Assembly (NCBI GenBank): GCA_040388805.1
Contig: JAZKBE010000032.1
Coordinates: 485 to 64,484, forward strand
Length of the DNA: 64,000 nt
From: Pseudomonadota bacterium
Lineage (GTDB): Bacteria; Pseudomonadota; Gammaproteobacteria; Burkholderiales; Burkholderiaceae_D
Reading direction: 5' to 3'
The notes under the pieces are model-generated. The model was not told where the DNA came from and did no database searches. It was given only the letters and a program-made list of their open reading frames with translations. Of the stretch, positions 1 to 43,771 are shown piece after piece (the stretch's first letter is position 1; each line of letters starts with the position of its first letter). Both the position numbers and the translations under genes were made by a program.

Positions 1-165
1 TTCGGCGATGATGTTCAGGTGCATGTCGGTGACCACCACGGCCACTTCGATGATGCGGTCAAGGTCGGGCTCGAGGCCCGTCATTTCCATGTCCACCCAG
101 ACCAGGTTGAACTCATTTGGGCGCTGTACCGCGGCCGGTGCTGCTAAATCAGTGGCATGTGACAT
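1..165 (-). CDS. orn: Oligoribonuclease, 5' part (runs off the left edge)
   Basis: Manual minus-strand translation from ATG at 165: [58 protein letters not shown] is the Orn DEDDh ExoI motif. Divergent from the M48-rsgA genes, as in Burkholderiales. Confidence 0.93.
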
Positions 166-212
166 AATTCTCTCTTGGCCTAATCAATCCTGCATTTTCT
201 CACAGGCACGTA

Positions 213-1475
213 ATGTATTCACTCGCGTTTTCGATCTTATTCGTTTCTTTCTTCATGTTGACCCTGGTGCTGCGCTTCTGGCTGGCGAACCGGCAATTGC
301 GCCACGTCATGGCCAACCGCGCCGTCGTGCCCGCCGAATTCGCCGAAAAAATCCCGCTGGCGGCGCACCAGAAGGCGGCCGACTATACCGCCGCCAAGAC
401 CCGCTTCGGCCTGCTGTCGCTACTGTTTTCCAGCTTTGTCCTGATCGGCTTCACCCTGCTGGGCGGCCTGCAATGGCTGTCCTCCACCCTGCTGCCGCTC
501 ACCGGCCCGGGCATGCTGTTCCAGATGGCGCTGCTGGTCGCTTTCGCCCTCATCGGCGGCGTGCTCGACCTGCCCTTCGATTATTACCGCCAGTTTGTCA
601 TCGAACAGCGTTTCGGTTTCAACAAGATGACGCTCGGCCTGTGGCTGGCCGACATGGGCAAGGGCGTGCTGCTGGGCGCGGCGATCGGCCTGCCGCTGCT
701 GTGGGTCGTATTGACGCTGATGGACAAGACGGGCGATCTGTGGTGGCTGTACGCCTGGCTGGTATGGAGCGGCTTCCAGCTGCTGATGATGGTGCTCTAC
801 CCCACCGTCATCGCGCCAATGTTCAACAAATTCACGCCGCTGGCCGACGCCAGCCTGAAGGCGCGCATCGAAGCGCTGATGGCGCGCGTGGGCTTCGCCT
901 CGTCCGGCCTGTTCGTGATGGATGGCTCGAAACGCAGCGCGCATGGCAATGCCTATTTCTCAGGCTTTGGCAGCAACAAGCGCATCGTTTTCTTCGATAC
1001 CCTGCTCTCGCGCCTGGCGCCCGAGGAAATCGAAGCGGTGCTGGCGCACGAACTGGGCCACTTCAAGCTGAAACACATCGTCAAGCGCATCGTCGTCATG
1101 TTCGCCGTCTCGCTCGGCTTCCTGGCCCTGCTCGGCTTCCTCAAGCAGCAGGCCTGGTTTTACACGGGCCTGGGCGTGGACCCGGTGCACGGCGGCGGCA
1201 ACGACGCCATGGCCCTGATCCTGTTCATGCTGGTGCTGCCGATCTTCACCTTCGTGCTCTCGCCGCTGACCTCGATCACCTCGCGCAAGCATGAATTCGA
1301 GGCCGACGCCTTCGCCGCCAAGCACACCGAAGCGAAAGACCTGGTCTCGGCCCTGGTGAAAATGTACGAGGACAATGCGTCCACCCTCACCCCCGATCCG
1401 CTGCATTCGGCCTTCTACGATTCCCACCCGCCGGCCTCCGTGCGGATCAAGCAACTGAACCTGGCGGCCACATGA
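213..1475 (+). CDS. M48 family (Ste24-like) integral membrane zinc metallopeptidase
   Basis: Multiple hydrophobic segments; HEXXH (AHELGH), EFEAD, YDSHPP and DGSKRSAHGNAYF motifs. Confidence 0.92.
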   Translation: MYSLAFSILFVSFFMLTLVLRFWLANRQLRHVMANRAVVPAEFAEKIPLAAHQKAADYTAAKTRFGLLSLLFSSFVLIGFTLLGGLQWLSSTLLPLTGPGMLFQMALLVAFALIGGVLDLPFDYYRQFVIEQRFGFNKMTLGLWLADMGKGVLLGAAIGLPLLWVVLTLMDKTGDLWWLYAWLVWSGFQLLMMVLYPTVIAPMFNKFTPLADASLKARIEALMARVGFASSGLFVMDGSKRSAHGNAYFSGFGSNKRIVFFDTLLSRLAPEEIEAVLAHELGHFKLKHIVKRIVVMFAVSLGFLALLGFLKQQAWFYTGLGVDPVHGGGNDAMALILFMLVLPIFTFVLSPLTSITSRKHEFEADAFAAKHTEAKDLVSALVKMYEDNASTLTPDPLHSAFYDSHPPASVRIKQLNLAAT

Positions 1476-1804
1476 CCCTCACCGAACAACACTGCACGAC
1501 CAGGCCGCCGGCGCTGGCTTCCGGCGCGGTCGATACCTTGCTGGCGCAAGTGGCCGGCTGGGCCCTCATCGACGGCATGCTGCGCACCAGCTTCTCGTTC
1601 AAGGACTACCACGAGACCATGGCCTTCGTGAACGCCCTGGCCTGGGTTTCGCACCGCGAAGACCACCATCCCGAACTGCTGCTCACCTACAAGCTGTGCG
1701 CGGTCGGCTACAACACCCATTCGGCCGGCGGCGAACTGACGCAAAACGATTTCATCTGCGCGGCCAAGGCCAGCGCGCTGTACGCCCAGCGGGCAGGCGC
1801 ATGA
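1472..1804 (+). CDS. phhB: Pterin-4-alpha-carbinolamine dehydratase family protein
   Basis: F-x-F-KDY and HREDHHP (H-x3-H-H-P) motifs, THSAGG..T.NDFICAAK C-terminus; ATGA overlap with the upstream gene. Confidence 0.9.
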   Translation: MTLTEQHCTTRPPALASGAVDTLLAQVAGWALIDGMLRTSFSFKDYHETMAFVNALAWVSHREDHHPELLLTYKLCAVGYNTHSAGGELTQNDFICAAKASALYAQRAGA

Positions 1805-2694
1805 GCGAGCCACTGACCGGCGTCGTCATCGCCGCCCACGGGCGCCATTACCTGGCCGACGTGGGCGGGCGCAAGCTGCAGTGCGTCACGCGCGGCAAAA
1901 AAACCAATGTGGCCGTGGGCGACCTGGTCAACCTGAAAATGACCTCGGACGACCAGGCCGTCATCGAATCGATCGCCGAGCGCAAGACGCTCTTGTACCG
2001 CTCGGACCAGTACAAGTCCAAGCTGCTGGCGGCCAACCTGACGCGCTTGTTCATCGTGGTGGCCACCGAACCGGGCTTCGCCGACGACCTCATTTCGCGC
2101 TCGCTGGTGGCGGCAGAAGCTGCAGGCATCGACGCCCACCTCATCCTCAACAAGACCGACGTCGCCGAGCTGCTGCCCAAGGCGCGCGAACGCCTGCTCA
2201 GCTACACTTCGCTCGGCTACCCGCTGCACGAAGTGTCGGCGCGCGCCGATCCCGAACACGCCGTGGCCACCCTGATGCCCCTGCTCGAAGGCCACAGCGC
2301 GATCTTCATCGGCCAGTCCGGCATGGGCAAGAGCTCCCTGATCAATCTGCTGGTGCCGGACGCCGACATCGCCGTGCGCGAAATTTCGGCCGCGCTCGAC
2401 ACCGGCAAGCACACCACCACCTTCACCCGCCTGTACGCGCTGGCGGGCGGCGCCTCCATCATCGATTCGCCGGGCTTCCAGGAATTCGGCCTGTACCACC
2501 TGTCCGAAGGCATGCTGGAACGCGCCTTCGTCGAATTCGGCCCCTACCTGGGCGGCTGCAAGTTCTACAATTGCCGCCACCTGATCGAACCGCAGTGCAC
2601 CATCCTGGCCGCGGTCGCCGAAGGCAAGATCGCGCGCTTCCGCCACCAGCTGTACGGCCAGTTGCTGCATGAATCGGCGCAGACCCTGTATTGA
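1801..2694 (+). CDS. rsgA: Ribosome small subunit-dependent GTPase A
   Basis: Circularly permuted GTPase motifs NKTD, GQSGMGKSS, GKHTTT, DSPG, then C-x4-C-x-H-x5-C zinc finger. Start ATG at 1801 overlaps the phhB stop. Confidence 0.95.
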   Translation: MSEPLTGVVIAAHGRHYLADVGGRKLQCVTRGKKTNVAVGDLVNLKMTSDDQAVIESIAERKTLLYRSDQYKSKLLAANLTRLFIVVATEPGFADDLISRSLVAAEAAGIDAHLILNKTDVAELLPKARERLLSYTSLGYPLHEVSARADPEHAVATLMPLLEGHSAIFIGQSGMGKSSLINLLVPDADIAVREISAALDTGKHTTTFTRLYALAGGASIIDSPGFQEFGLYHLSEGMLERAFVEFGPYLGGCKFYNCRHLIEPQCTILAAVAEGKIARFRHQLYGQLLHESAQTLY

Positions 2695-2757
2695 TCCGGA
2701 ATTTTGTTGCCTTAGGGATTTTTCGGCATACAATTGATCGAAAAGGGGGCGCTACCG

Positions 2758-5586
2758 ATGGAAATGTTCACAGTCGATGACAATGTGGCCAAGTGGGAAA
2801 CCATGCTGCCCTCGCTGCGCGGTCTCGACCGGCTCCCCATCCTGCTGCCCCTGGCCTGGCACCTGCGCCAGCGCGACACCCTGCGCGCCATCGCCCTGGC
2901 GGCCGAAGCGCTCTCCCTGCTCCCCGAATCCGGACTCGACGAAGCCGCCCGCGCGCGCGGCCAGGCACGCATGCGCCTGGTGCATGCCGAAGGGCGCTGG
3001 CTGCATGGCGAACTGGAAGTGGCCCGGGCCCAGGCCGGCGACGTGCTGCAGCGCTTTACCGAACTGGGCGACGCCGCCGGCGCCGCCGACAGCCACTGGC
3101 TGCTGGCCTGGATCGCGGTCGACCGCGGCGACCATGGCGGCAGCGACGCCGCCTTCGCCGCGGCGGCGGCGGCGGCCACGCGCGGCGGCGACCGGCAGCG
3201 CGCCGAACTGGCCGAAGCGGCCATCGCGCGCTGGGCCGTCCTGCGCGACCGCAACACCGCCGTGGCGCGCTGGGGCGGGCGCTTCAATTCCGACAGCGCC
3301 GGCCAGGACCCGGCGCTGGCCACCTGGATCAACGACTTCCTGGCGCTGGCGGCCAGCCAGGCCGGCGACTTCGGCGCGGCGGCCGGCTACTTCATCCGCT
3401 GCTACGAAGCGGCCCTGGAAACGGGCCAGCTGCGCGCCGCCATCACGTCGGCCACCAATATCGGCGAAGAATTCACCCTGCTCAACGACCACCATTCGGC
3501 GCTCGAATGGATGCAGTGCGCGCTTGAACTGGCGCGCCCCACCGGCTGGCCGCGCAGCGTAGGCGCCTGCCTGATGCACACGGCCGACACGCTGCGCCGC
3601 CTGGGCCAGCTCGACCCGGCGCACGACATGCTGCAAGAAGCGCTGGAAATCCTCAAGCCCCTGGAAAACGCGCGCAGCTACGCCATCGCGCTGCAGTACC
3701 TGGGCGACCTGTCGCTCGACCAGGGCCATTTCGAGGAAGCGCTCGACGCCTTTACCCGGCTCGAAGTGCGCGCCGACGCGCTCGACCAGGCCGATTTCCG
3801 CAGCATCGCGCGGCGCGGCCAGGCGCATGCCCTGTCGCGCCTGGGGCGCTGCGAGGAAGCGCTGGGCGTGGCCGCGCAGGCGGCCAACCTGGCCGCCGAC
3901 CAGCACAATCCCTACAACCAGATCGCCGCGCTGCGCGTGATGGCCATGATCCACAACGAGCACCGGCTGGCCGCGCCCGAGGGCATGGTCGAAGCCAACC
4001 CCGCCCTGCACTACCTGCGCAAGGCGCTGGCGGTGGCCACCACCATCGAAGGCTATACCGTGCCCGGCGAACTGTACGACGCCATGGCGCGCGAATACGC
4101 CGCCGCCGGCGACTACCGGCACGCCTACGAAGTGGCGCTGGCGGCGTCGAACTCGCGCGAGAAAACGCACAGCCAGGAAGCGACCAACCACGCCATCGCC
4201 ATGCAGGTGCACCACCAGACCGAGCATGCCCGCAGCGAGGGCTACCACCACCGCGAGCTGGCCGAATCGGAAGCGCGGCGCGCCGAGATCGCCCAGCGCA
4301 CCAGCGCCACGCTCGAACGGCTGTCGGCCATCGGCCAGGAGATCACCGCCCACCTCGACGCCGAAGCCGTGTTCCGCGCGCTGGACCGGCATATCCACGG
4401 CCTGCTCACGGCCAGCACCTTCGCCATCTACATGACCGACGCCAGCGCCACCATGCTGCACCGGGCCTTCGGCGTGGAACTGGGCAAACCCCTGCCCACC
4501 CATTCGATCCCGCTCGACCACCCGGCCGCCAATTCGGTGCGCTGCCTGACCGAGCGGCGCGAAATCTACATCGACAACTGGCCCGACGCCGAGCACCGCA
4601 ACGTGGTGCCGGGCACCATGGTCAACCTGTCGGCCCTGTTCGTGCCGCTGACGGTGGGCGAGCGCGCGATCGGCGTGATGACGGTGCAGGCACCGCAAGC
4701 GCGCGCCTACGGCGAAAACGAACGCATGATCTTCCGCACCCTGTGCGCCTACGGCGCCATCGCCCTCGACAATGCCGAAGCCTACCGCCAGCTGCAGGAT
4801 GCGCAGGCGCAGCTGGTATCGCAGGAAAAGCTGGCCGCGCTGGGGTCCCTGATGGCGGGCGTGGCGCACGAACTCAATACCCCGATCGGCAACAGCCTGC
4901 TGATCGCCTCGACCATGCAGGAAAAGACAGCCGAAATCGAAGTGCTGATGAACGGGCCGGGCTTGCGCCGTTCGGAACTGGCGAGCTTCGTGGCCGACTC
5001 GCAGAAAGCGGCGGCGCTGGTCATGCGCGGGCTCACCAGCGCGGCCGACCTGGTCAACAGCTTCAAGCAGGTGGCGGTCGACCGCACCACCGAACAGCGC
5101 CGCAATTTCAACCTGCAGCAGGTATGCCATGAAATCATCGCCACCATGATGAACCGGATCCGCCAGGCCAACCACAGCATCGAGATGCAGGTGGGCGACA
5201 CGATCGGCATGGACAGCTACCCCGGCCCCTTCGGCCAGGTGATCACCAACTTCATCAACAACGCCCTGCTGCACGCCTTCGCGGCCGGCACCAGCGGCAA
5301 GATGCTGCTCAAGTCCACGCTGGCGCCCGACAACCGGGTGATCGTGGAATTTCGCGACGACGGCGGCCGCATCCCCGGCGAGCACCTGGGCCGCATCTTC
5401 GATCCCTTCTTCACCACCAAGCTGGGCCAGGGCGGCAGCGGGCTGGGCCTGTCGATCAGCTACAACATCGTCACATCCCTGCTGGGCGGCCAGATCAGCG
5501 TGGCCAGCAGCCCGGCCGGCACCTGCTTCACGCTCGACCTGCCCCTGACGGCACCCCAGCCCGACCCGACCAGCGCCATCTACTGA
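2758..5586 (+). CDS. Cytoplasmic TPR-repeat / GAF / histidine kinase
   Basis: About 490 aa of Ala-rich helical TPR-like repeats, a GAF region (LFVPLTVGERAIGVMTVQ), H-box GVAHELNTPIGN, N-box NFINNA, FDPFFTTK and GSGLGL. No TM segment. Start chosen after AAAAGGGGG. Confidence 0.85.
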   Translation: MEMFTVDDNVAKWETMLPSLRGLDRLPILLPLAWHLRQRDTLRAIALAAEALSLLPESGLDEAARARGQARMRLVHAEGRWLHGELEVARAQAGDVLQRFTELGDAAGAADSHWLLAWIAVDRGDHGGSDAAFAAAAAAATRGGDRQRAELAEAAIARWAVLRDRNTAVARWGGRFNSDSAGQDPALATWINDFLALAASQAGDFGAAAGYFIRCYEAALETGQLRAAITSATNIGEEFTLLNDHHSALEWMQCALELARPTGWPRSVGACLMHTADTLRRLGQLDPAHDMLQEALEILKPLENARSYAIALQYLGDLSLDQGHFEEALDAFTRLEVRADALDQADFRSIARRGQAHALSRLGRCEEALGVAAQAANLAADQHNPYNQIAALRVMAMIHNEHRLAAPEGMVEANPALHYLRKALAVATTIEGYTVPGELYDAMAREYAAAGDYRHAYEVALAASNSREKTHSQEATNHAIAMQVHHQTEHARSEGYHHRELAESEARRAEIAQRTSATLERLSAIGQEITAHLDAEAVFRALDRHIHGLLTASTFAIYMTDASATMLHRAFGVELGKPLPTHSIPLDHPAANSVRCLTERREIYIDNWPDAEHRNVVPGTMVNLSALFVPLTVGERAIGVMTVQAPQARAYGENERMIFRTLCAYGAIALDNAEAYRQLQDAQAQLVSQEKLAALGSLMAGVAHELNTPIGNSLLIASTMQEKTAEIEVLMNGPGLRRSELASFVADSQKAAALVMRGLTSAADLVNSFKQVAVDRTTEQRRNFNLQQVCHEIIATMMNRIRQANHSIEMQVGDTIGMDSYPGPFGQVITNFINNALLHAFAAGTSGKMLLKSTLAPDNRVIVEFRDDGGRIPGEHLGRIFDPFFTTKLGQGGSGLGLSISYNIVTSLLGGQISVASSPAGTCFTLDLPLTAPQPDPTSAIY

Positions 5587-37406: not shown

Positions 37407-37829
37407 ATGAACTTCCTGAACACCGTCCTGCTCGCCTTGTCGCTGCTGGCCGCCCCGGCCCTGGCTGCCGACGACGCATCCCACTTCCAGCTCAGTCCGA
37501 CAATCCTGCAAAAGCTGATGAGCGCGGAAGCCGAGATGAAGCTGCTGCAAAAGCCCGACGAGGGCCTGGCCGCCCCCGACGAAGACAAGTCGATCGCGGC
37601 GGCGATCCGCCGCATCGACGCCGATCCGAAGACCACTGCCGTGCTCGCCAAGCACGGCCTCACCAGCCGCGACCTGGTGCTCTCCACCCACGCCCTGTAT
37701 CACGCCGGCATGTTCGTTTCCACCGAAAGCACGCTGGACGAGAAAAAGCGCGCGGCGTTGTACCAGAGCTATACCAGCGAGCAGCAGGCCAATATCGACA
37801 TGATTCGCGCCATGCACGCGGCGAAATAA
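37407..37829 (+). CDS. Hypothetical exported protein
   Basis: Sec signal peptide MNFLNTVLLALSLLAAPALA (A-x-A cleavage); helical mature part. Confidence 0.7.
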   Translation: MNFLNTVLLALSLLAAPALAADDASHFQLSPTILQKLMSAEAEMKLLQKPDEGLAAPDEDKSIAAAIRRIDADPKTTAVLAKHGLTSRDLVLSTHALYHAGMFVSTESTLDEKKRAALYQSYTSEQQANIDMIRAMHAAK

Positions 37830-38157: not shown

Positions 38158-38466
38158 ATGGCAATCGACATGGCATCCCCCACTTATCCGCACGCGCACG
38201 CGCCGGCGCCGCAGCCCGAACTGCTGGTCTCGGCGGCCCTGCACCTGATGTCGCATTACAGCGCCAGCGCGGCCCGCACCGAACCATGCATCAAGCTCGC
38301 TTCCGTGATCGAACGCCACCTGAAGGCGCTGGCCGGCCATGGCGACCTCAATCCCGTCCTGCGCGCCACCTGCCAGCAATTGTCCGAACAATGGGGCGCC
38401 GTGGTCGACCAGGCCCTGCGCCCGGCACGGCCGTCGCTGTTCGGGCGCTTCAGCCGAGGGCGATAG
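38158..38466 (+). CDS. Hypothetical small His/Cys-containing helical protein downstream of hemP
   Basis: AGGAG RBS before the ATG; open 102 aa frame; no family recognised. Confidence 0.7.
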   Translation: MAIDMASPTYPHAHAPAPQPELLVSAALHLMSHYSASAARTEPCIKLASVIERHLKALAGHGDLNPVLRATCQQLSEQWGAVVDQALRPARPSLFGRFSRGR

Positions 38467-40042
38467 CGCAGGCGTAGGGCGCCATCTGCGCGCCATTGAC
38501 GCCGAAGGCATACAGGCTGCGGTGGGCCGCGATGGCGAGCGGCAGCGCGCATGGCTCGCCCGACAGATTGACTGCGACCAGGATGCGCTGCGCCGGCGTG
38601 CTGCGCCAAAACAGCAGCAATTGCGGCGCGCCGCTGCGCACGAAATGCACCGCGCCGTGGCGCAGGGCTGCGTGTTCGCGGCGCAGCGCGATCAGCGCGC
38701 GGTAGTGGTGGAAGGTGGTGTCGTCGAAGCTGTCCCAGTCGAGCTGCATGCCGTCGAACAGCGAAGCCCAGGTGTTCAGGCGCGGCTCGTTGAATTCCTG
38801 GCCCATCATCAGGTGCGGCACGCCGTCGAGCGTGAGCACCACGGCCGCCGCCGCCAGATGGAGCAGGCGGCCGAAATACAGGTGGGCCCTGCCCTGCTCC
38901 TTTTCTTCCAGCCAGCGCATGCGCAGCGCGCCGCGCGGGAAAGTGTAGGTCGATTCTTCCCATTGCCAGCGGACCGCATCGGCGCCCGCCTGGCCCTGGG
39001 AGATGCGCAGCATGGTTTCGCGCGCACCGCCGTCGTAGGTGAGGTCGCAGGCGTCCAGGTGGTGCAGTTCGTCGGTCGATTGCGAAATGAGGCCGATATC
39101 GGGCCGCACGGCCACCAGGGCGGCGCGGATCTCGTCGAGGAAATCGAGCGGCGTGATGTCGGCATCGTCGAAGCGCATGCCGTCCAGGTCGAAGCCGGTG
39201 ATCCAGTCCTGCATGGCCTTGATCAGGTAGGCGCGCAGCGCGCGGCTGCGGAAGTCGAAGCCGGCGAACATGCTGCGGTTCGGTACCGCGTAATACACGC
39301 GCCCGGCCGCGTCGCGCGTGAACCAGTCGGGATGGGTGTCGGTCAGCGGGTTGTCGGCACTGGCGCGGTTGAGCGTCCAGTCGAAGATGATGCGCATGCC
39401 GCGCGCATGCATGTCGGCGACCAGCGCGCGCAGCTCGTCGGCAGTGCCCAGCGCCGGATCGATCGCCAGGAAGTCGCGCGTGGCGTACAAGTCGCCATGG
39501 CTGCGGTTGCGCGGCTGCACCGGCATCATCCAGATGACGTTGATGCCCAGGTCCTGCAGGTAGGGCAGCTTCGCGCGCACCCCGTTGAAGGTACCGGCAA
39601 AGGCGTGCACCGACAGCTGGTAGATGACCGCGTCGCGCAGCCATTGCGGGCTGGCCAGCGCCGTGCGGCGGCGATACAGGTCGCCCGGCGTCTGCTGCGA
39701 TGCTTCGCCGGTGCGGATGAACACATCGCCGAACTCGTTGATCGTGAAGCAGGAATTGTTCTGCGCGTCTTCGGAAATCCATGGGTTGGCCGGATCGAGG
39801 ATCCAGTCGGTGCCGTTGACGACAATCTTGTAGTGATGGCGGCCCGGGTTGGCGCGTACCGTGCCCTGCCAGGTGCTGCGGCCCACGCGCGTCAGGGGCG
39901 CGGCATCGCCCACCCAGCTGTTGAAGGTGCCGGCAACGGCGACGCTGTCGACGCCTGCCCCGCCTTCGAAAGTAAACCGGATGCCGGCGGCTGTTTTTTG
40001 CGGCAGCAGTTCGTGCCGGAGAGGTCGGATAGAAGTCGTCAT
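38450..40042 (-). CDS. CBM48/E-set + GH13 alpha-amylase-fold protein with non-canonical active site
   Basis: N-terminal SVAVAGTFNSW...YKIVVNG..W..DP.NP; GH13 scaffold (DAVIYQL, LQDLGINVIWMMP, IDPALGT, DGMRFD, GVPHLMMGQE). Start ATG at 40042; no signal peptide. Confidence 0.85.
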   Translation of the reverse strand: MTTSIRPLRHELLPQKTAAGIRFTFEGGAGVDSVAVAGTFNSWVGDAAPLTRVGRSTWQGTVRANPGRHHYKIVVNGTDWILDPANPWISEDAQNNSCFTINEFGDVFIRTGEASQQTPGDLYRRRTALASPQWLRDAVIYQLSVHAFAGTFNGVRAKLPYLQDLGINVIWMMPVQPRNRSHGDLYATRDFLAIDPALGTADELRALVADMHARGMRIIFDWTLNRASADNPLTDTHPDWFTRDAAGRVYYAVPNRSMFAGFDFRSRALRAYLIKAMQDWITGFDLDGMRFDDADITPLDFLDEIRAALVAVRPDIGLISQSTDELHHLDACDLTYDGGARETMLRISQGQAGADAVRWQWEESTYTFPRGALRMRWLEEKEQGRAHLYFGRLLHLAAAAVVLTLDGVPHLMMGQEFNEPRLNTWASLFDGMQLDWDSFDDTTFHHYRALIALRREHAALRHGAVHFVRSGAPQLLLFWRSTPAQRILVAVNLSGEPCALPLAIAAHRSLYAFGVNGAQMAPYACAIALG

Positions 40043-40063
40043 GTGGCGATATTCTACCCATAT

Positions 40064-40099
40064 AAAAAAACCCCCGCCAGGGGACAACCTGCGGGGGTT
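40064..40099 (-). terminator. Intrinsic terminator between the TBDR and GH13 genes
   Basis: Minus strand AACCCCCGCAGG-TTGTCC-CCTGGCGGGGG followed by T7. Confidence 0.75.
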
Positions 40100-40145: not shown

Positions 40146-42512
40146 TTAGAACTTGGCCGAGATGCGCACGCCTGCAGTGCGCGGCGGGTTGTAGAAGGCA
40201 ACCCAGGTCTGGCCAGGGGTGCCGGCGGCAACCCAGTTCGCGTCCGTCTTGACCGCTTCGTCGGTGGCATTCATCACGAATACTTCGGCGAGCCATTTGC
40301 GGCCGGCCGCTTCGTAACGCAAGGCCAGGTCGAGCGTGCTGTAGGCTTTCTGTTCGCGTGCATCGGCAAAGCTGCCGGCCAGCTGCGCAGGACCCGGGGT
40401 GGTATTGAACTCGCTGATGTACGACTTGGTCTGGTAATGGACCGATGCACGCGGCGTGAGCTTGCCGTCGCCGATGGCGAAGTCATGCTCGTAGGCGGCC
40501 GTCATCGAGAAGGTCGGTGCGTGGCGCAGCTTGTTCCCTTTCAGGTTGATGCTTTGCGTATTGCAGTCCATGTACGACGAATCGCAGGTGATGAAGTCGC
40601 CATAGGTCGCGTCCAGCCAGTTGGCGTTGCCCATCAGGCGGTCGCTGCGGCCGATGCGCCAGTTGAACTCCGTTTCCACGCCGTTGATCGACGAGCGCGC
40701 GGCATTGCCCGTGACGACCTGCTGCTGGCCGTTCTGCAGGCGTTCCACCGACGAGACCTGCATGTCCTTGTACTTCATCGCAAAGGCGGACACGTTGAAG
40801 GTCAGCGCGCGGTTGAACCATTCCGACTTCAGGCCCAGCTCGTAGTTGGTGATGAACTCGGGCTTGAAGAAGCGCCCGCCGTCGCCGAAGCCGCCCGACT
40901 TGAAGCCGGTCGACACCGAGGCGTAGCCATTCACGTCGCGCGACATCATGTATTCGGCGCGCGCCAGGAAGGTGGTGGCGCTGTCCACCGGCGAGATGGC
41001 GCTGTTGTCGCCGCCGCCTGGCCAGGTGCCCGGTGCATAGGCGCTGCCGCAGGACTGTGCGTTGACCGGGCCGCCGGCGCCGATCAGGTGGCCGCCGGTA
41101 CCGACGGTCGAACCGAAGTTCGGGCATACCCAGTTGCGACCGCCCTTGTCTTCCTTCTGTTCACGCGTGTGGCGCATGCCGCCGGTGAGCTTGAAGCTGT
41201 CGGACAAAGCGAACGTCGCCTGACCGAATACGGCTTTCGAGTCGAGCGTGCGGTTCGGCTGGATGAAGGACATGGCCCAGGCAGTATCGCCAGGCAGGGT
41301 CGGATGCACCACGATCGGTCCCACGCCCGGCGTGACGGCCGTTTGCGAAATGTCGATGTCGAAGCGGATGCTGTTGTCTTCGTGGATCATGAAGCCGCCG
41401 ATCAGCCACTGGAACGGCGCTTTTTCATCGTTCGACTTGAACTGCAGCTCGTGCGTGTAGTTGTCGAACTTGGACCACTCGGTGCGGTGCTCCTGCTTGA
41501 AGCCCGGCAGCACGCCGGCATCGTTGTCGCTGGCATTGGTGCGTTTGAGCTGGCTGGCGCTGCCGATGTAGCTCAGTTCGACCGCGTCGGTCGGGCGGTA
41601 GTTCAGGCGCGTGCGGTAGCTCACGTTCGACTGGGCCAGTGCGCCCGGAGTGTCGATCAGGGCCGAATACAGCGGCTGGCCCGCGCGCGGACGCTGCATC
41701 AGCGCCACGTTGCCGGTGCCGTTGTCGCGGTAGTACTCGATGGCGCCCAGGGCGTCGAAGCGGTCGGTCGGATGCCACTTGGCCGAAGCGCGCACGCCCA
41801 GCTGGTCGCCGGCCATGTACTTGCGCTGGCCCGACACCACGTTCGAACGGGGCTGGAAGTCGACATAGCCGTCATGCTTTTCGCTGATGGCGGCCACGCG
41901 CACTGCCAGGGTATCGGACAGCGGCACGTTGACCGCGGTGCTCATGCCGATGCGGTTGTACTGGCCGGCGATGAACTGGGCATTGCCGCCGAACTTGTCG
42001 AAGCGCGGCTTGGCCGTTTCCAGGTTGACCGAGCCGGCGGTGGCGTTACGGCCGGACAGCGTGCCTTGCGGGCCGCGCGCCACCTCGACGTGATCGAGGT
42101 CGTACATCAATACAGTGGCGCCCTGCGGACGCGGCGAATACACGCCGTCAACGTGGAAGGCGACGGCAGGATCGCCGATTTCGGTGTGGTTGGTGGAACC
42201 GACGCCGCGCATGAACACGTGCACGCCGCCCGAGTCGCCGTGCTGCTCGACCACCAGGTTGGGCACCATGACCTGCAACGAGGTCAGGTCGACCACGCCG
42301 GCATTGTCCAGGGTGGCCTGGCTGAAGGCGGTGACGGCCAGCGGCGTATCCTGCAGCAGCGTGGCGCGCTTGGTGGCGGTCACGACGATGCGTTCGACCT
42401 GGTCGGACTCTCCCTGTACCGGTGCGCTCTGCTGCGCGAATGCGCCGCCCGCGGACAAGATCGCGAACGGTGCCAGCGTCCACACCATTTTTCTCTTTGT
42501 TGAATGCTTCAT
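40146..42512 (-). CDS. TonB-dependent outer membrane receptor
   Basis: Signal peptide, TonB box ERIVVTA, plug motifs (FHVDGVY, EVARGPQGTLSGRNATAGSVN), C-terminal PRTAGVRISAKF. Confidence 0.95.
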   Translation of the reverse strand: MKHSTKRKMVWTLAPFAILSAGGAFAQQSAPVQGESDQVERIVVTATKRATLLQDTPLAVTAFSQATLDNAGVVDLTSLQVMVPNLVVEQHGDSGGVHVFMRGVGSTNHTEIGDPAVAFHVDGVYSPRPQGATVLMYDLDHVEVARGPQGTLSGRNATAGSVNLETAKPRFDKFGGNAQFIAGQYNRIGMSTAVNVPLSDTLAVRVAAISEKHDGYVDFQPRSNVVSGQRKYMAGDQLGVRASAKWHPTDRFDALGAIEYYRDNGTGNVALMQRPRAGQPLYSALIDTPGALAQSNVSYRTRLNYRPTDAVELSYIGSASQLKRTNASDNDAGVLPGFKQEHRTEWSKFDNYTHELQFKSNDEKAPFQWLIGGFMIHEDNSIRFDIDISQTAVTPGVGPIVVHPTLPGDTAWAMSFIQPNRTLDSKAVFGQATFALSDSFKLTGGMRHTREQKEDKGGRNWVCPNFGSTVGTGGHLIGAGGPVNAQSCGSAYAPGTWPGGGDNSAISPVDSATTFLARAEYMMSRDVNGYASVSTGFKSGGFGDGGRFFKPEFITNYELGLKSEWFNRALTFNVSAFAMKYKDMQVSSVERLQNGQQQVVTGNAARSSINGVETEFNWRIGRSDRLMGNANWLDATYGDFITCDSSYMDCNTQSINLKGNKLRHAPTFSMTAAYEHDFAIGDGKLTPRASVHYQTKSYISEFNTTPGPAQLAGSFADAREQKAYSTLDLALRYEAAGRKWLAEVFVMNATDEAVKTDANWVAAGTPGQTWVAFYNPPRTAGVRISAKF

Positions 42513-42605: not shown

Positions 42606-42735
42606 TGAAAACGTTTTCATGATGTGCAGCCATTTAACACCTGATTTTTTGCCAAGTCAAACATTTTATGAAAACGTTTTCAAGAAATTGAGGGGAATGG
42701 GGCAAATATGGTACGCTGCGATGAAAAGCTTTTCA
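42606..42735. promoter_or_regulatory. Three LacI-family operators in the TBDR / lacI divergent promoter
   Basis: TGAAAACGTTTTCA at 42606-42619 and 42669-42682; TGAAAAGCTTTTCA at 42722-42735. Confidence 0.85.
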
Positions 42736-42736
42736 C

Positions 42737-43771
42737 ATGAATGGATGCCCCTTGAACGACCCCGACAACAGCGCCCCACCCTCCACCCTGATCGACGTCG
42801 CGCGCCTGGCCGGCGTCTCGCCCAGCACCGTGTCGCGCATCCTCAACGGCACCGCCAAGGTCTCCGACGACAAGCGCCTGGCGGTGTTGTCGGCCATCGA
42901 CAAGATGAATTTCGCGCCCAACCAGATGGCGCAGGGCTTAAAGCGCGGCAAATCGATGACGATCGGAATCGTGGTGCAGGATATCTCCAGCCCCTTCTTC
43001 GACGAAACGCTGCGCGGGGTCGACGATGGCATCAAGGGCACCGGCTATGCGTCGGTGATCGTCAGCGGCCACTGGAACGCGGACGAGGAAGTCGAGCGCA
43101 TCCGCCTTCTGCTGGCGCGCAAGGTGGACGGCATCATCGTGCTGTCGGGGCGCCTGGGCGACGAAGCCATCCTGCAGTTCGCCAACCAGAAGCCCATCGT
43201 CTCGACCGGGCGCGAGCTGAACACGGCCAATGCGCTCGGCTTCAAGCTCGATAACGAATACGGCGCCTACCTCGCGGTGCGCCATTTGATCGAACTGGGA
43301 CACCGCCGCATCGCCTTCGTGACGGGGCCGGCCAACAACAACGACGCGGCCGAACGCCTGACCGGCTACAAGCGCGCGCTGCGCGAAGGCGATATAGTCT
43401 TCGATCCGAAGCTGGTGGCCGAAGGCGACTTCCATGAAGCGGGCGGCCTGCTGGCGGCCAGCCACCTGTTCGAAACGAACCAGCAGTTCACCGCGGTGTT
43501 CGCGGCCAACGACCTTTCCGCCTATGGCATCAGGCTGTGCCTGTACCGCAAGGGAATCCGCGTGCCGGACGATATTTCACTGGTCGGTTTCGATGATTTG
43601 CCCGGTTCGTCCTACACCACGCCGCCGCTGACGACCATCCGCCAGCCGCTGTACGACATGGGCCGCATCGCCAGCAATTCGCTGCTGCGCCTGATCAATG
43701 GGGAAACGGTGACGGCATCGCTGCCGCCGCTGGAACTGGTGGTGCGCGAAACGACGCGCGTGATGCGCTAG
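42737..43771 (+). CDS. LacI family transcriptional regulator
   Basis: TLIDVARLAGVSPSTVSRILN HTH, NFAPN hinge, VFAANDLSA, SLVGFDD and PPLTTIRQP motifs. Start may be TTG at 42752. Confidence 0.95.
   Translation: MNGCPLNDPDNSAPPSTLIDVARLAGVSPSTVSRILNGTAKVSDDKRLAVLSAIDKMNFAPNQMAQGLKRGKSMTIGIVVQDISSPFFDETLRGVDDGIKGTGYASVIVSGHWNADEEVERIRLLLARKVDGIIVLSGRLGDEAILQFANQKPIVSTGRELNTANALGFKLDNEYGAYLAVRHLIELGHRRIAFVTGPANNNDAAERLTGYKRALREGDIVFDPKLVAEGDFHEAGGLLAASHLFETNQQFTAVFAANDLSAYGIRLCLYRKGIRVPDDISLVGFDDLPGSSYTTPPLTTIRQPLYDMGRIASNSLLRLINGETVTASLPPLELVVRETTRVMR

Follow-up and report, generated by a model that had tools for sequence, protein, structure and literature searches.

The gene at 38450..40042 on the minus strand of a 64,000-nucleotide stretch of DNA from a Pseudomonadota bacterium (GenBank assembly GCA_040388805.1, contig JAZKBE010000032.1, positions 485 to 64,484) encodes a protein of glycoside hydrolase family 13 (GH13), the alpha-amylase family, in which the nucleophile Asp is kept while much of the remaining sugar pocket has been exchanged. 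The whole stretch is called the window here, and positions are those of the window unless another contig is named. The protein is called X, residue numbers follow X, labels with L denote loci or contigs, and labels with P denote representative sequences. The exchanges are shared by 208 sequences, and the clade formed by them spans three bacterial phyla. We favour a catalytic protein because the nucleophile Asp, an Arg and a stacking Tyr are invariant and because the replaced residues are fixed in the way that is usual for enzymes, and a new function is probable because the rest of the sugar pocket was rebuilt and then held fixed across the three phyla. Our leading reading, held tentatively and at a little under an even chance, is that X is an active enzyme whose −1 sugar or leaving group would be unlike plain alpha-1,4-glucan. 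That X is catalytic, what kind of substrate it acts on and what each residue does are inferred. It is more doubtful that X would be a GH13-fold enzyme with a chemistry or specificity new to the family, either acid-independent cleavage of alpha-glycosides whose −1 sugar carries phosphate or some other charged group, or an elimination or lyase reaction coupled to a short-chain dehydrogenase/reductase (SDR) and a fatty-acid-hydroxylase-family protein whose genes would have been co-transferred.

Exchange of residues in the sugar pocket

The sequence of X was aligned to Thermotoga neapolitana AmyB (4GKL), which was the best match of a phmmer search against PDB sequences (E 1e-43) and the closest PDB match, with an estimated identity of about 30%. 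In this alignment and in that to 43 canonical relatives, the GH13 conserved regions I–VII could be recognised in X in canonical order. The phmmer pairing set DMVLNH, GFRCDVAG, ISETHD and FLENHDQ of 4GKL against DWTLNR, GMRFDDAD, ISQSTD and WLEEKEQ of X, and MAFFT and hmmalign gave the same columns. An initial annotation of the window had read the motifs as His to Arg, a kept Asp, Glu to Gln and His-Asp to Lys-Glu. The open reading frame (ORF) is indeed intact, FDWTLNRAS, GMRFDDADI, GLISQST and WLEEKEQ are all found in its 530-residue translation, the codon coordinates given for Arg226, Asp292, Gln321 and Lys381-Glu382 were correct, and the alignment to 4GKL bore out every one of these exchanges. 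The region III loop is equally long in X (LISQSTDELHH) and in its nearest canonical relative P0125 (LLAESEDQIHN), and in the AlphaFold2 model Gln321 is located at the C-terminal end of strand beta5. The agreement of the three alignments, the equal loop length in the canonical sister and the position of Gln321 in the model exclude a register shift, so an alignment slip that hides a Glu or an Asn-His-Asp, the danger seen by the initial annotation, was ruled out.

The residue comparison covered 208 clade members, with pairwise identities of 31–91%, and the 43 canonical relatives, and all codons given here are on the minus strand. At the region I His position (His103 of 4GKL), Arg226 (39365..39367) was found in 208/208 members, whereas the relatives had His in 43/43. 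At the general acid/base position (codon 39080-39082), Gln was found in 195 members, His in 13 and Glu in 0, against Glu in 43/43 relatives. This Gln opens the segment Q321-S-T-D324-E325 (39068..39082), whose Asp and Glu are also clade-specific, and Glu325 (208/208) stands where the relatives mostly have Pro. The Asn-His-Asp of region IV was replaced by E380-K381-E382 (38897..38905): position 380 was Glu in 149 members and Asp in 59, against Asn in 40/43, while Lys381 and Glu382 (codons 38897-38902) were found in 208/208, against His and Asp, each in 43/43. The region II core D292-D293-A-D295 (39158..39169) has kept the nucleophile-position Asp292 (codon 39167-39169) and has gained two new Asp, each of the three being present in 208/208, with Asp293 in place of mostly Val and Asp295 in place of Gly, Glu or Ala.

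Further exchanges were found at Asp184 (39491..39493; 208/208, against Ser in 40/43 and Cys in 3/43), which is two residues ahead of the kept stacking Tyr186, at Arg256 of the domain-B loop (39275..39277; 208/208, in place of a Trp that is invariant in the relatives, 43/43), at Leu302 (204/208, against Trp in 42/43), at Arg341 (207/208, against Tyr and others) and at Met413 (208/208, against Asn or Ala). Position 258 was Tyr, His, Ala, Glu, Ser or Met in the clade and Asp in 43/43 relatives; it corresponds to Asp135 of AmyB, which binds the non-reducing end (PMC11239784). Common to both sets were Tyr186, Asp221, Asn225, Arg290, Asp292 and Glu416. The Lys-His of region II is missing in X, and the same absence is normal among GH13_48-like relatives. 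The catalytic triad of GH13 is incomplete in X, with Asp292 present, Gln321 or His at the Glu position and Glu382 at the Asp position, and both −1 subsite histidines are replaced (Arg226 and Lys381) in 208/208, with Arg290 of region II kept.

The initial annotation had named four changed residues and had described them as confined to the active site. All four stood, and at least eight further invariant clade-specific positions have to be added to them; the confinement held roughly, with changes that appear to reach also the domain-B loop, Asp293/Asp295 and Asp324/Glu325 behind beta5. The charge changes do not simply make an anion-binding site, since the gain of acidic residues was no smaller than that of basic ones: by sequence the pocket would have acquired about 4 basic and 5–6 acidic residues. 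In a 10-sequence alignment spanning 34–62% identity, 27 of the 63 invariant columns that we counted were inside the seven conserved GH13 regions, which make up about 12% of positions.

A single clade under selection

A search of a 5.8-billion-protein collection gave 262 relatives of X, and the best 120 of these 262 (55–88% identity) all keep NR, R.DD.D, [SA][QH] and [ED][ED]KE. Over the 208 members the R/Q/K/E pattern is fixed down to 31% identity, with Gln or His at 321. When one genome per species was scanned (about 185,000 species genomes), the motif-defined family was present in at least 96 genomes. These were mostly Oxalobacteraceae (Massilia, Duganella, Pseudoduganella, Rugamonas and Telluria), and further hosts were Rhizobacter, one Microbulbifer, about 38 Paenibacillus/Cohnella and one Flavobacterium; additional copies were found on metagenome contigs, many of them from soil. 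A HMMER search of 1.84 billion cluster representatives found the pattern in only a handful of 50%-identity clusters, and the next-best matches (≤36% identity) were canonical H/D/E/H/D sequences of the AmyB type. In the maximum-likelihood tree, eight remodelled representatives formed one clade (SH-like approximate likelihood ratio test, SH-aLRT, 99) on a stem of length 0.39, with the canonical P0125/P0132 as neighbours within the AmyB-like set. The X clade appears, from its sequences, to be a single old offshoot of the GH13_48-like radiation of exo-acting maltogenic-amylase-like enzymes.

The initial annotation had ascribed the pattern to selection rather than decay, and this is strongly supported by the 208-member pattern, by the monophyly, by a ratio of non-synonymous to synonymous substitution rates (dN/dS) of 0.11–0.35 between X and its orthologues, and by the fact that Glu has never come back at position 321 in any of the 208, despite the single base change that separates Gln from Glu. 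A metagenome contig (L124, Ga0187844_10002665, 120-5441) carries a 99%-identical X in the same order of LacI-family regulator gene, TonB-dependent receptor (TBDR) gene and X; the two copies of X differ by 20 synonymous and 7 non-synonymous changes. The gene is patchy: only 2/121 sampled genomes of its own GTDB family have it, and three genomes from its genus lack it.

Two side observations concern the distribution. In an uncultured lineage with 25% GC (L147/L148, 7977-10132, and L118, 1-1838), an X of 38–40% identity keeps the pattern and is followed by a NUDIX hydrolase gene on the same strand. Several other AmyB-like lineages are also without canonical catalytic residues (P0136, P0152, P0171, P0197, P0205 and P0211, as well as P0237, P0239, P0241, P0258 and P0259), and some of them do not even have the nucleophile. 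They appear scattered and variable, unlike the X clade, and some of their odd region III assignments may be alignment slips. Loss of catalysis may be frequent in the AmyB-like subfamily.

A possible enzyme for a modified alpha-glycoside

If X is an enzyme, the barrel would keep the set that holds the ring and forms the glycosyl-enzyme, namely Tyr186, Asp221, Arg290 and the nucleophile Asp292, while every other −1 contact would have been exchanged (His to Arg226, His to Lys381, Asp to Glu382, Asn to Glu/Asp380, Ser to Asp184 and Trp to Arg256). The carboxylate acid/base would be swapped for Gln or His, and the new acidic residues Asp293, Asp295, Asp324 and Glu325 would line the aglycone side. 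The alpha-glycosidic substrate that such an enzyme would cleave or transfer would be akin to the alpha-glucosides or maltodextrins that are imported, and either the −1 residue of the substrate would bear a charged or modified group or the leaving group would need no acid catalysis. It would thus handle a substrate beyond the reach of the canonical alpha-glucosidases encoded beside X in some genomes. The single guess that we find most coherent is a phosphate esterified to C6 or C3 of the glucose, which would make phosphorylated starch or glycogen dextrins the candidate substrates; it was drawn from the Arg at the O6-ligand position and the Lys at the O2/O3-ligand position together with the family 48 carbohydrate-binding module (CBM48) and the maltodextrin-type contexts described below.

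Gene and domain architecture

The ORF of X has no internal stops, its start Met is common to the homologues, and the homologues are 530–547 amino acids long. An in-frame extension up to 40270 would overlap the end of the upstream gene, and the homologues do not use it. The GC content at third codon positions (GC3) is 0.87 in a genome of 64% GC, a value typical for a genuine gene.

The N-terminal module (residues ~20–101; 39740..39985, minus strand) is of the CBM48 or AMPK-beta glycogen-binding type. The Pfam AMPK1_CBM/CBM48 profile matched residues 23–95 with 31.1 bits against a cut-off of 26.8, and alignment to the AMPK beta1 structures 1Z0M/1Z0N matched W43, K72 and W80, which we take to be the glucan-binding Trp/Lys/Trp of CBM48. 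These three and about 20 further positions of the N-domain are 98–100% conserved in the clade, and the module looks still able to bind alpha-1,4-glucan chains. The catalytic-type (beta/alpha)8 barrel with domain B follows at residues ~130–445 (38708..39655, minus strand; Pfam Alpha-amylase PF00128, E 1.7e-23), and domain C (DUF3459/Malt_amylase_C; Pfam E 2.2e-12) at residues 446–530 (38453..38707, minus strand). The AlphaFold2 model had a predicted local distance difference test score (pLDDT) of 82 and a predicted template modelling score (pTM) of 0.84, with an all-beta C-terminal domain. Foldseek matched it to GH13 structures only; neopullulanase-type chains ranked first by E-value, and the catalytic core was closest by fold to 4GKL and to Lactobacillus plantarum 3DHU (template modelling score, TM, of 0.79, normalised to the target). 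No solved structure from the X clade was found among the PDB matches.

An N-terminus like a signal peptide is missing in 204/205 members, the sole exception being the divergent metagenomic P0131, for which a search for genome relatives found none. X is therefore a cytoplasmic CBM48-GH13 protein. Elsewhere in the window genome there are nine PF00128 matches besides X.

Gene neighbourhoods in related loci

The surroundings of X were surveyed in 91 related loci from genomes, and a carbohydrate-type neighbour was counted within 3 kb. Such a neighbour was found in 35/91 loci, directly adjacent in 27. What recurs is a setting of carbohydrate use inducible by sugar, in which genes for alpha-glucosides or maltodextrins are the commonest partners, and X usually stands alongside canonical exo-alpha-glucosidases without replacing them.

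Eleven Paenibacillus/Cohnella loci have the order AraC-type regulator, GH13_31, X and SDR, and AraC is directly ahead of X in six further loci. In Paenibacillaceae, 7 nt are shared by the X gene and the end of the GH13_31 gene, and this partner is canonical, its closest structure being the oligo-1,6-glucosidase 1UOK (E 1e-211). The SDR is GolD/DthD/KduD-like and stands beside X in 12–13 Paenibacillaceae loci. In L043 the order is LacI, substrate-binding protein (SBP), MalF, MalG and X, flanked by a cyclomaltodextrinase/neopullulanase gene and a GH15 gene. A GH31 gene is followed by X in L067, L091 and L137. In L067 and L091 there is first a LamB maltoporin gene, then a gene of the fatty-acid-hydroxylase family on the opposite strand and then GH31 and X, and in L091 a cyclomaltodextrinase gene lies between the porin and hydroxylase-family genes. 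On the metagenome contigs L119–L121, genes for a fatty-acid-hydroxylase-family protein, a CBM9/DUF5916 protein and an SDR precede X. The SDR of L119 is 66% identical to that of Paenibacillus, with the opposite gene order relative to X, and the hydroxylases of L119–L121 share 42–46% identity with the copies beside X in L067 and L091.

As a separate observation, the recurring hydroxylase-family protein is a membrane protein of 400 amino acids from the di-iron fatty-acid-hydroxylase superfamily (L119, 4682-10864; L067, 4015-9596; L091, 933-9656), and the copies in L067, L091 and L119–L121 are 42–56% identical.

In the Massilia group, L090, L098, L104 and L141 have an opposite-strand TBDR gene followed by LacI, X and zwf. 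L136 has the same arrangement on a contig that ends just past X, and L135 has X-zwf without TBDR and LacI. We considered an Entner-Doudoroff operon around X-zwf and rejected it, because only zwf adjoins and the next genes encode a polyhydroxyalkanoate-synthase-like hydrolase and a TetR regulator. The neighbourhoods gave no support for sulfoquinovose or uronate pathways; those that were informative indicate mostly the use of alpha-glucans or alpha-glucosides, but in Massilia X is linked to a GH1 beta-glucosidase regulon. In a Massilia subgroup (L131, 12709-17035, and also L125, L128 and L020), a TBDR gene and then a beta-propeller phytase gene were seen about 3 kb downstream of X; since opposite-strand AraC and GGDEF genes intervene, this is probably a phytate-uptake pair unrelated to X.

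The locus in the window genome

The X region of the window is flanked by housekeeping genes, with cysDN and a cobA-type methylase gene on one side and pepA on the other; in relatives, pepA is separated from X by lptF, lptG and cbiX. Two small ORFs on the plus strand (37407-37829 and 38158-38466), without Pfam match, are convergent with X and are kept at 60–77% identity in the same place in related Massilia loci. Upstream of X there are a TBDR gene (40146..42512, minus strand; Pfam Plug and TonB_dep_Rec) and a divergent gene for a LacI-family regulator (42737..43771, plus strand; Pfam LacI and Peripla_BP). Three LacI-type operator palindromes TGAAAACGTTTTCA are located in the LacI-TBDR spacer (42606-42619, 42669-42682 and 42722-42735, the last with 2 mismatches), against 0.07 expected, and within the window these operators sit upstream of the TBDR gene only.

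Between the TBDR gene and X, on the minus strand, there are a terminator-like hairpin (CCCCCGC...GCGGGGG followed by T7; 40064..40097) and a TAGAAT box resembling a −10 element (40051..40056), 8 nt ahead of the ATG (40040-40042) and without a Shine-Dalgarno sequence. Eight related Massilia-type loci, among them L016–L020, L065 and L102, have TAAAAT or TAGAAT at a distance of 8–9 nt from the start codon of X. Judging by the hairpin and the conserved box, X is probably transcribed from a promoter of its own into a leaderless mRNA. With this terminator and box between TBDR and X, the arrangement is not that of a TonB-receptor carbohydrate-utilisation locus.

No orthologue of the window TBDR adjoins X among the 91 related genome loci, and the TBDR-X arrangement recurs solely in the contig L124 with the 99%-identical copy. 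LacI orthologues (75–83% identity) are directly beside X, without TBDR, in L020, L065, L102 and L107, and in L102 and L107 the spacer of the two genes contains the same palindrome TGAAAACGTTTTCA. In L021 a LacI orthologue and operators come first, followed by genes for an SBP, two permeases, a GH1 beta-glucosidase and a MalK-type ATPase, and X closes the series. The pairing of LacI and X without the TBDR is thus conserved in 4–5 relatives. Elsewhere in the window genome, two copies of TGAAAACGTTTTCA stand immediately ahead of a GH1 beta-glucosidase gene on another contig (C15:23598-23631, L115 7599-7632) and one is ahead of a MatE gene (C70:7002-7015, L116). Because an operator precedes the GH1 gene in the window genome and L021 has a GH1 operon, the regulator looks like a LacI of the beta-glucoside type, and the TGAAAACGTTTTCA sites outline a small regulon that looks beta-glucoside-related. 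The link of the LacI regulator to X is suggestive and perhaps partly positional. A conserved three-gene system of LacI, TBDR and X was rejected, because the TBDR is found only here and in L124, a terminator lies between, and the operators are also before GH1.

Weighing the possible functions of X

Several points weigh against an active enzyme for an unusual −1 sugar or leaving group. With a sugar as the leaving group, a change of Glu to Gln at the acid/base position is the classic inactivating mutation in GH13. The guess of phosphorylated dextrins is weakened by the equal gain of acidic residues and by the lack of a phospho-specific neighbour, as no phosphatase, kinase or other phospho-sugar-specific gene was consistently linked to X in the surveyed loci. 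The new charges may simply form pairs among themselves that fill up the pocket. In 56/91 loci there was no carbohydrate-related neighbour and X is an orphan amid unrelated housekeeping genes, and the informative loci disagree on the sugar, with alpha-glucoside genes in some and GH1 beta-glucosidase in others (L021 and the window operator). Literature searches for GH13 enzymes with a Gln acid/base, GH13 pseudo-enzymes and links to 3-keto-glucosides found no characterised clade member.

A possible but less likely explanation is that X is a non-catalytic pseudo-enzyme that binds alpha-glucan through CBM48 and the former cleft and works as a sensor, scaffold or targeting partner. The acid/base carboxylate is missing in 208/208, both glucose-binding histidines and the transition-state Asp of canonical GH13 are gone, two Trp that are invariant in canonical members are lost (to Arg256 and Leu302), and the CBM48 site is strictly conserved, all of which fits a protein that only binds. 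The 7-nt overlap with the canonical GH13_31 gene in Paenibacillaceae fits partner proteins made in a fixed ratio, and the mostly orphan loci fit a housekeeping or regulatory protein. Plant ISA2 and LSF1 are parallels for non-catalytic glucan binders. The pseudo-amylase BAM9 is another such parallel (PMC11326238). However, no member departs from Asp292, Arg290, Tyr186 or Asp221, and the replacements are fixed as strictly as catalytic residues usually are. The partner genes also vary between lineages, and in the window genome there is no alpha-glucosidase gene beside X. In L067 the GH31 enzyme has a signal peptide and X has none, so a complex of the two is impossible there.

We regard it as improbable that X hydrolyses maltodextrin or glycogen as an ordinary exo-acting enzyme whose acid/base has moved to Glu325, Asp324, Asp293 or Asp295. 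The loci with maltoporin, MalFG-type ATP-binding cassette (ABC) transporters, cyclomaltodextrinase, GH15 and GH31 would suit such a hydrolase, as would the intact CBM48 and the example of BmaN1, which hydrolyses starch despite an aberrant triad. The invariant Glu325 and Asp293 are near canonical catalytic positions in the sequence, and Glu325, four residues past Gln321, may be a candidate substitute catalyst. But a plain glucose at −1 would not need all of its O2, O3 and O6 ligands replaced (H226R, H381K and D382E), canonical enzymes for linear maltodextrins are already encoded in such clusters, and neutral drift around the same function would not account for clade-specific changes so numerous and so strictly fixed.

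Still less probable, in our view, is a non-Koshland chemistry on the GH13 scaffold, that is, a beta-elimination on a keto glycoside made by the SDR or a metal- or phosphate-dependent reaction. Asp292 or Glu382 might act as the base and Lys381 might stabilise an enolate, roles that are pure conjecture, and elimination mechanisms can dispense with an acid catalyst. The specific SDR beside X in the Paenibacillaceae loci, its 66%-identical counterpart in L119, and the hydroxylase-family membrane protein that recurs with X in L067, L091 and L119–L121 would fit such a pathway. An oxidise-and-eliminate multi-enzyme pathway for glycosides is known in other folds (bioRxiv 10.1101/2024.03.25.586180). 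Against this, the window genome, and apparently other Oxalobacteraceae too, are without the SDR and the hydroxylase: in the window genome the best match to the Paenibacillus-type SDR had 39% identity, so that no orthologue is present, and an orthologue of the fatty-acid-hydroxylase partner is also absent. To our knowledge, no GH13 lyase is known.

Decay or a sequencing or alignment artefact can practically be dismissed. The only known systematic study of the parent subfamily, on GH13_48/49, did discard 17 representatives with incomplete catalytic machinery as likely errors or pseudogenisation (PMC11239784), but X has an intact ORF with the GC3 and dN/dS given above, all 208 sequences, from three phyla, share its pattern, and a 99%-identical copy comes from an independent metagenome.

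No glycoside hydrolase family is larger or better studied than GH13, and the label that annotation pipelines give to every member is "alpha-amylase family glycosyl hydrolase"; the public names of the clade members are only this generic one and "DUF3459 domain-containing protein". A pocket that was exchanged and then frozen is the signature of a new function and not of a loss. If X is enzymatic, it would have a new GH13 specificity or mechanism, which might explain how rhizosphere bacteria handle modified alpha-glucans, and if acid-independent cleavage of charged glycosides or elimination is true, it would mean a new CAZy subfamily and a new Enzyme Commission (EC) activity. Should X turn out to be non-catalytic, it would clearly exemplify a conserved GH13 pseudo-enzyme in bacteria.

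Comparison with known systems

Subfamily GH13_48, which centres on T. neapolitana AmyB, was established in 2024 (PMC11239784). X is like AmyB (4GKL) and 3DHU in its A/B/C domains, in a region II without Lys-His, in a region VII that ends in G-Q and in its exo-type pocket scaffold. It is unlike AmyB in having Arg for His103, Gln or His for Glu, Glu-Lys-Glu for Asn-His-Asp and Phe or Leu for the Cys ahead of the nucleophile; the Asp135 position, which caps the non-reducing end in AmyB, is not conserved, an N-terminal CBM48 is added, and X forms a separate clade on a long stem. Of the GH13_48 signature residues, G414-Q415 are kept, Phe or Leu stands for Cys and the Asp135 position is variable, and in conserved sequence region (CSR) V the stretch reads F-A-G-F and not the signature L-[DN]. 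X lacks most of the signature residues and would lie in or next to GH13_48.

Non-canonical catalytic residues are found in other GH13 proteins too. The BmaN1 group of GH13_45 has an aberrant triad and yet is an active starch hydrolase (PMC5347038). X resembles this group as a whole natural GH13 clade with a fixed non-canonical catalytic residue, but in BmaN1 the transition-state Asp alone is exchanged (for His) and the Glu acid/base is kept, whereas X has no acid/base and about 12 changed pocket residues.

The heavy chains 4F2hc/rBAT and the plant isoamylase ISA2 are non-catalytic GH13-type proteins selected for a role other than hydrolysis, in which the nucleophile or the pocket is generally lost. 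As in these, the GH13 fold is kept in X and catalytic residues are replaced; unlike them, X has an invariant nucleophile Asp, Arg and Tyr and is bacterial, cytoplasmic and equipped with CBM48. The myrosinase of GH1 has a natural Glu-to-Gln change at the acid/base position and is a retaining glycosidase that acts on a substrate with an excellent leaving group through an otherwise canonical −1 site. X shares the Gln at the acid/base position with myrosinase, but it differs in fold and clan and in having a remodelled −1 site.

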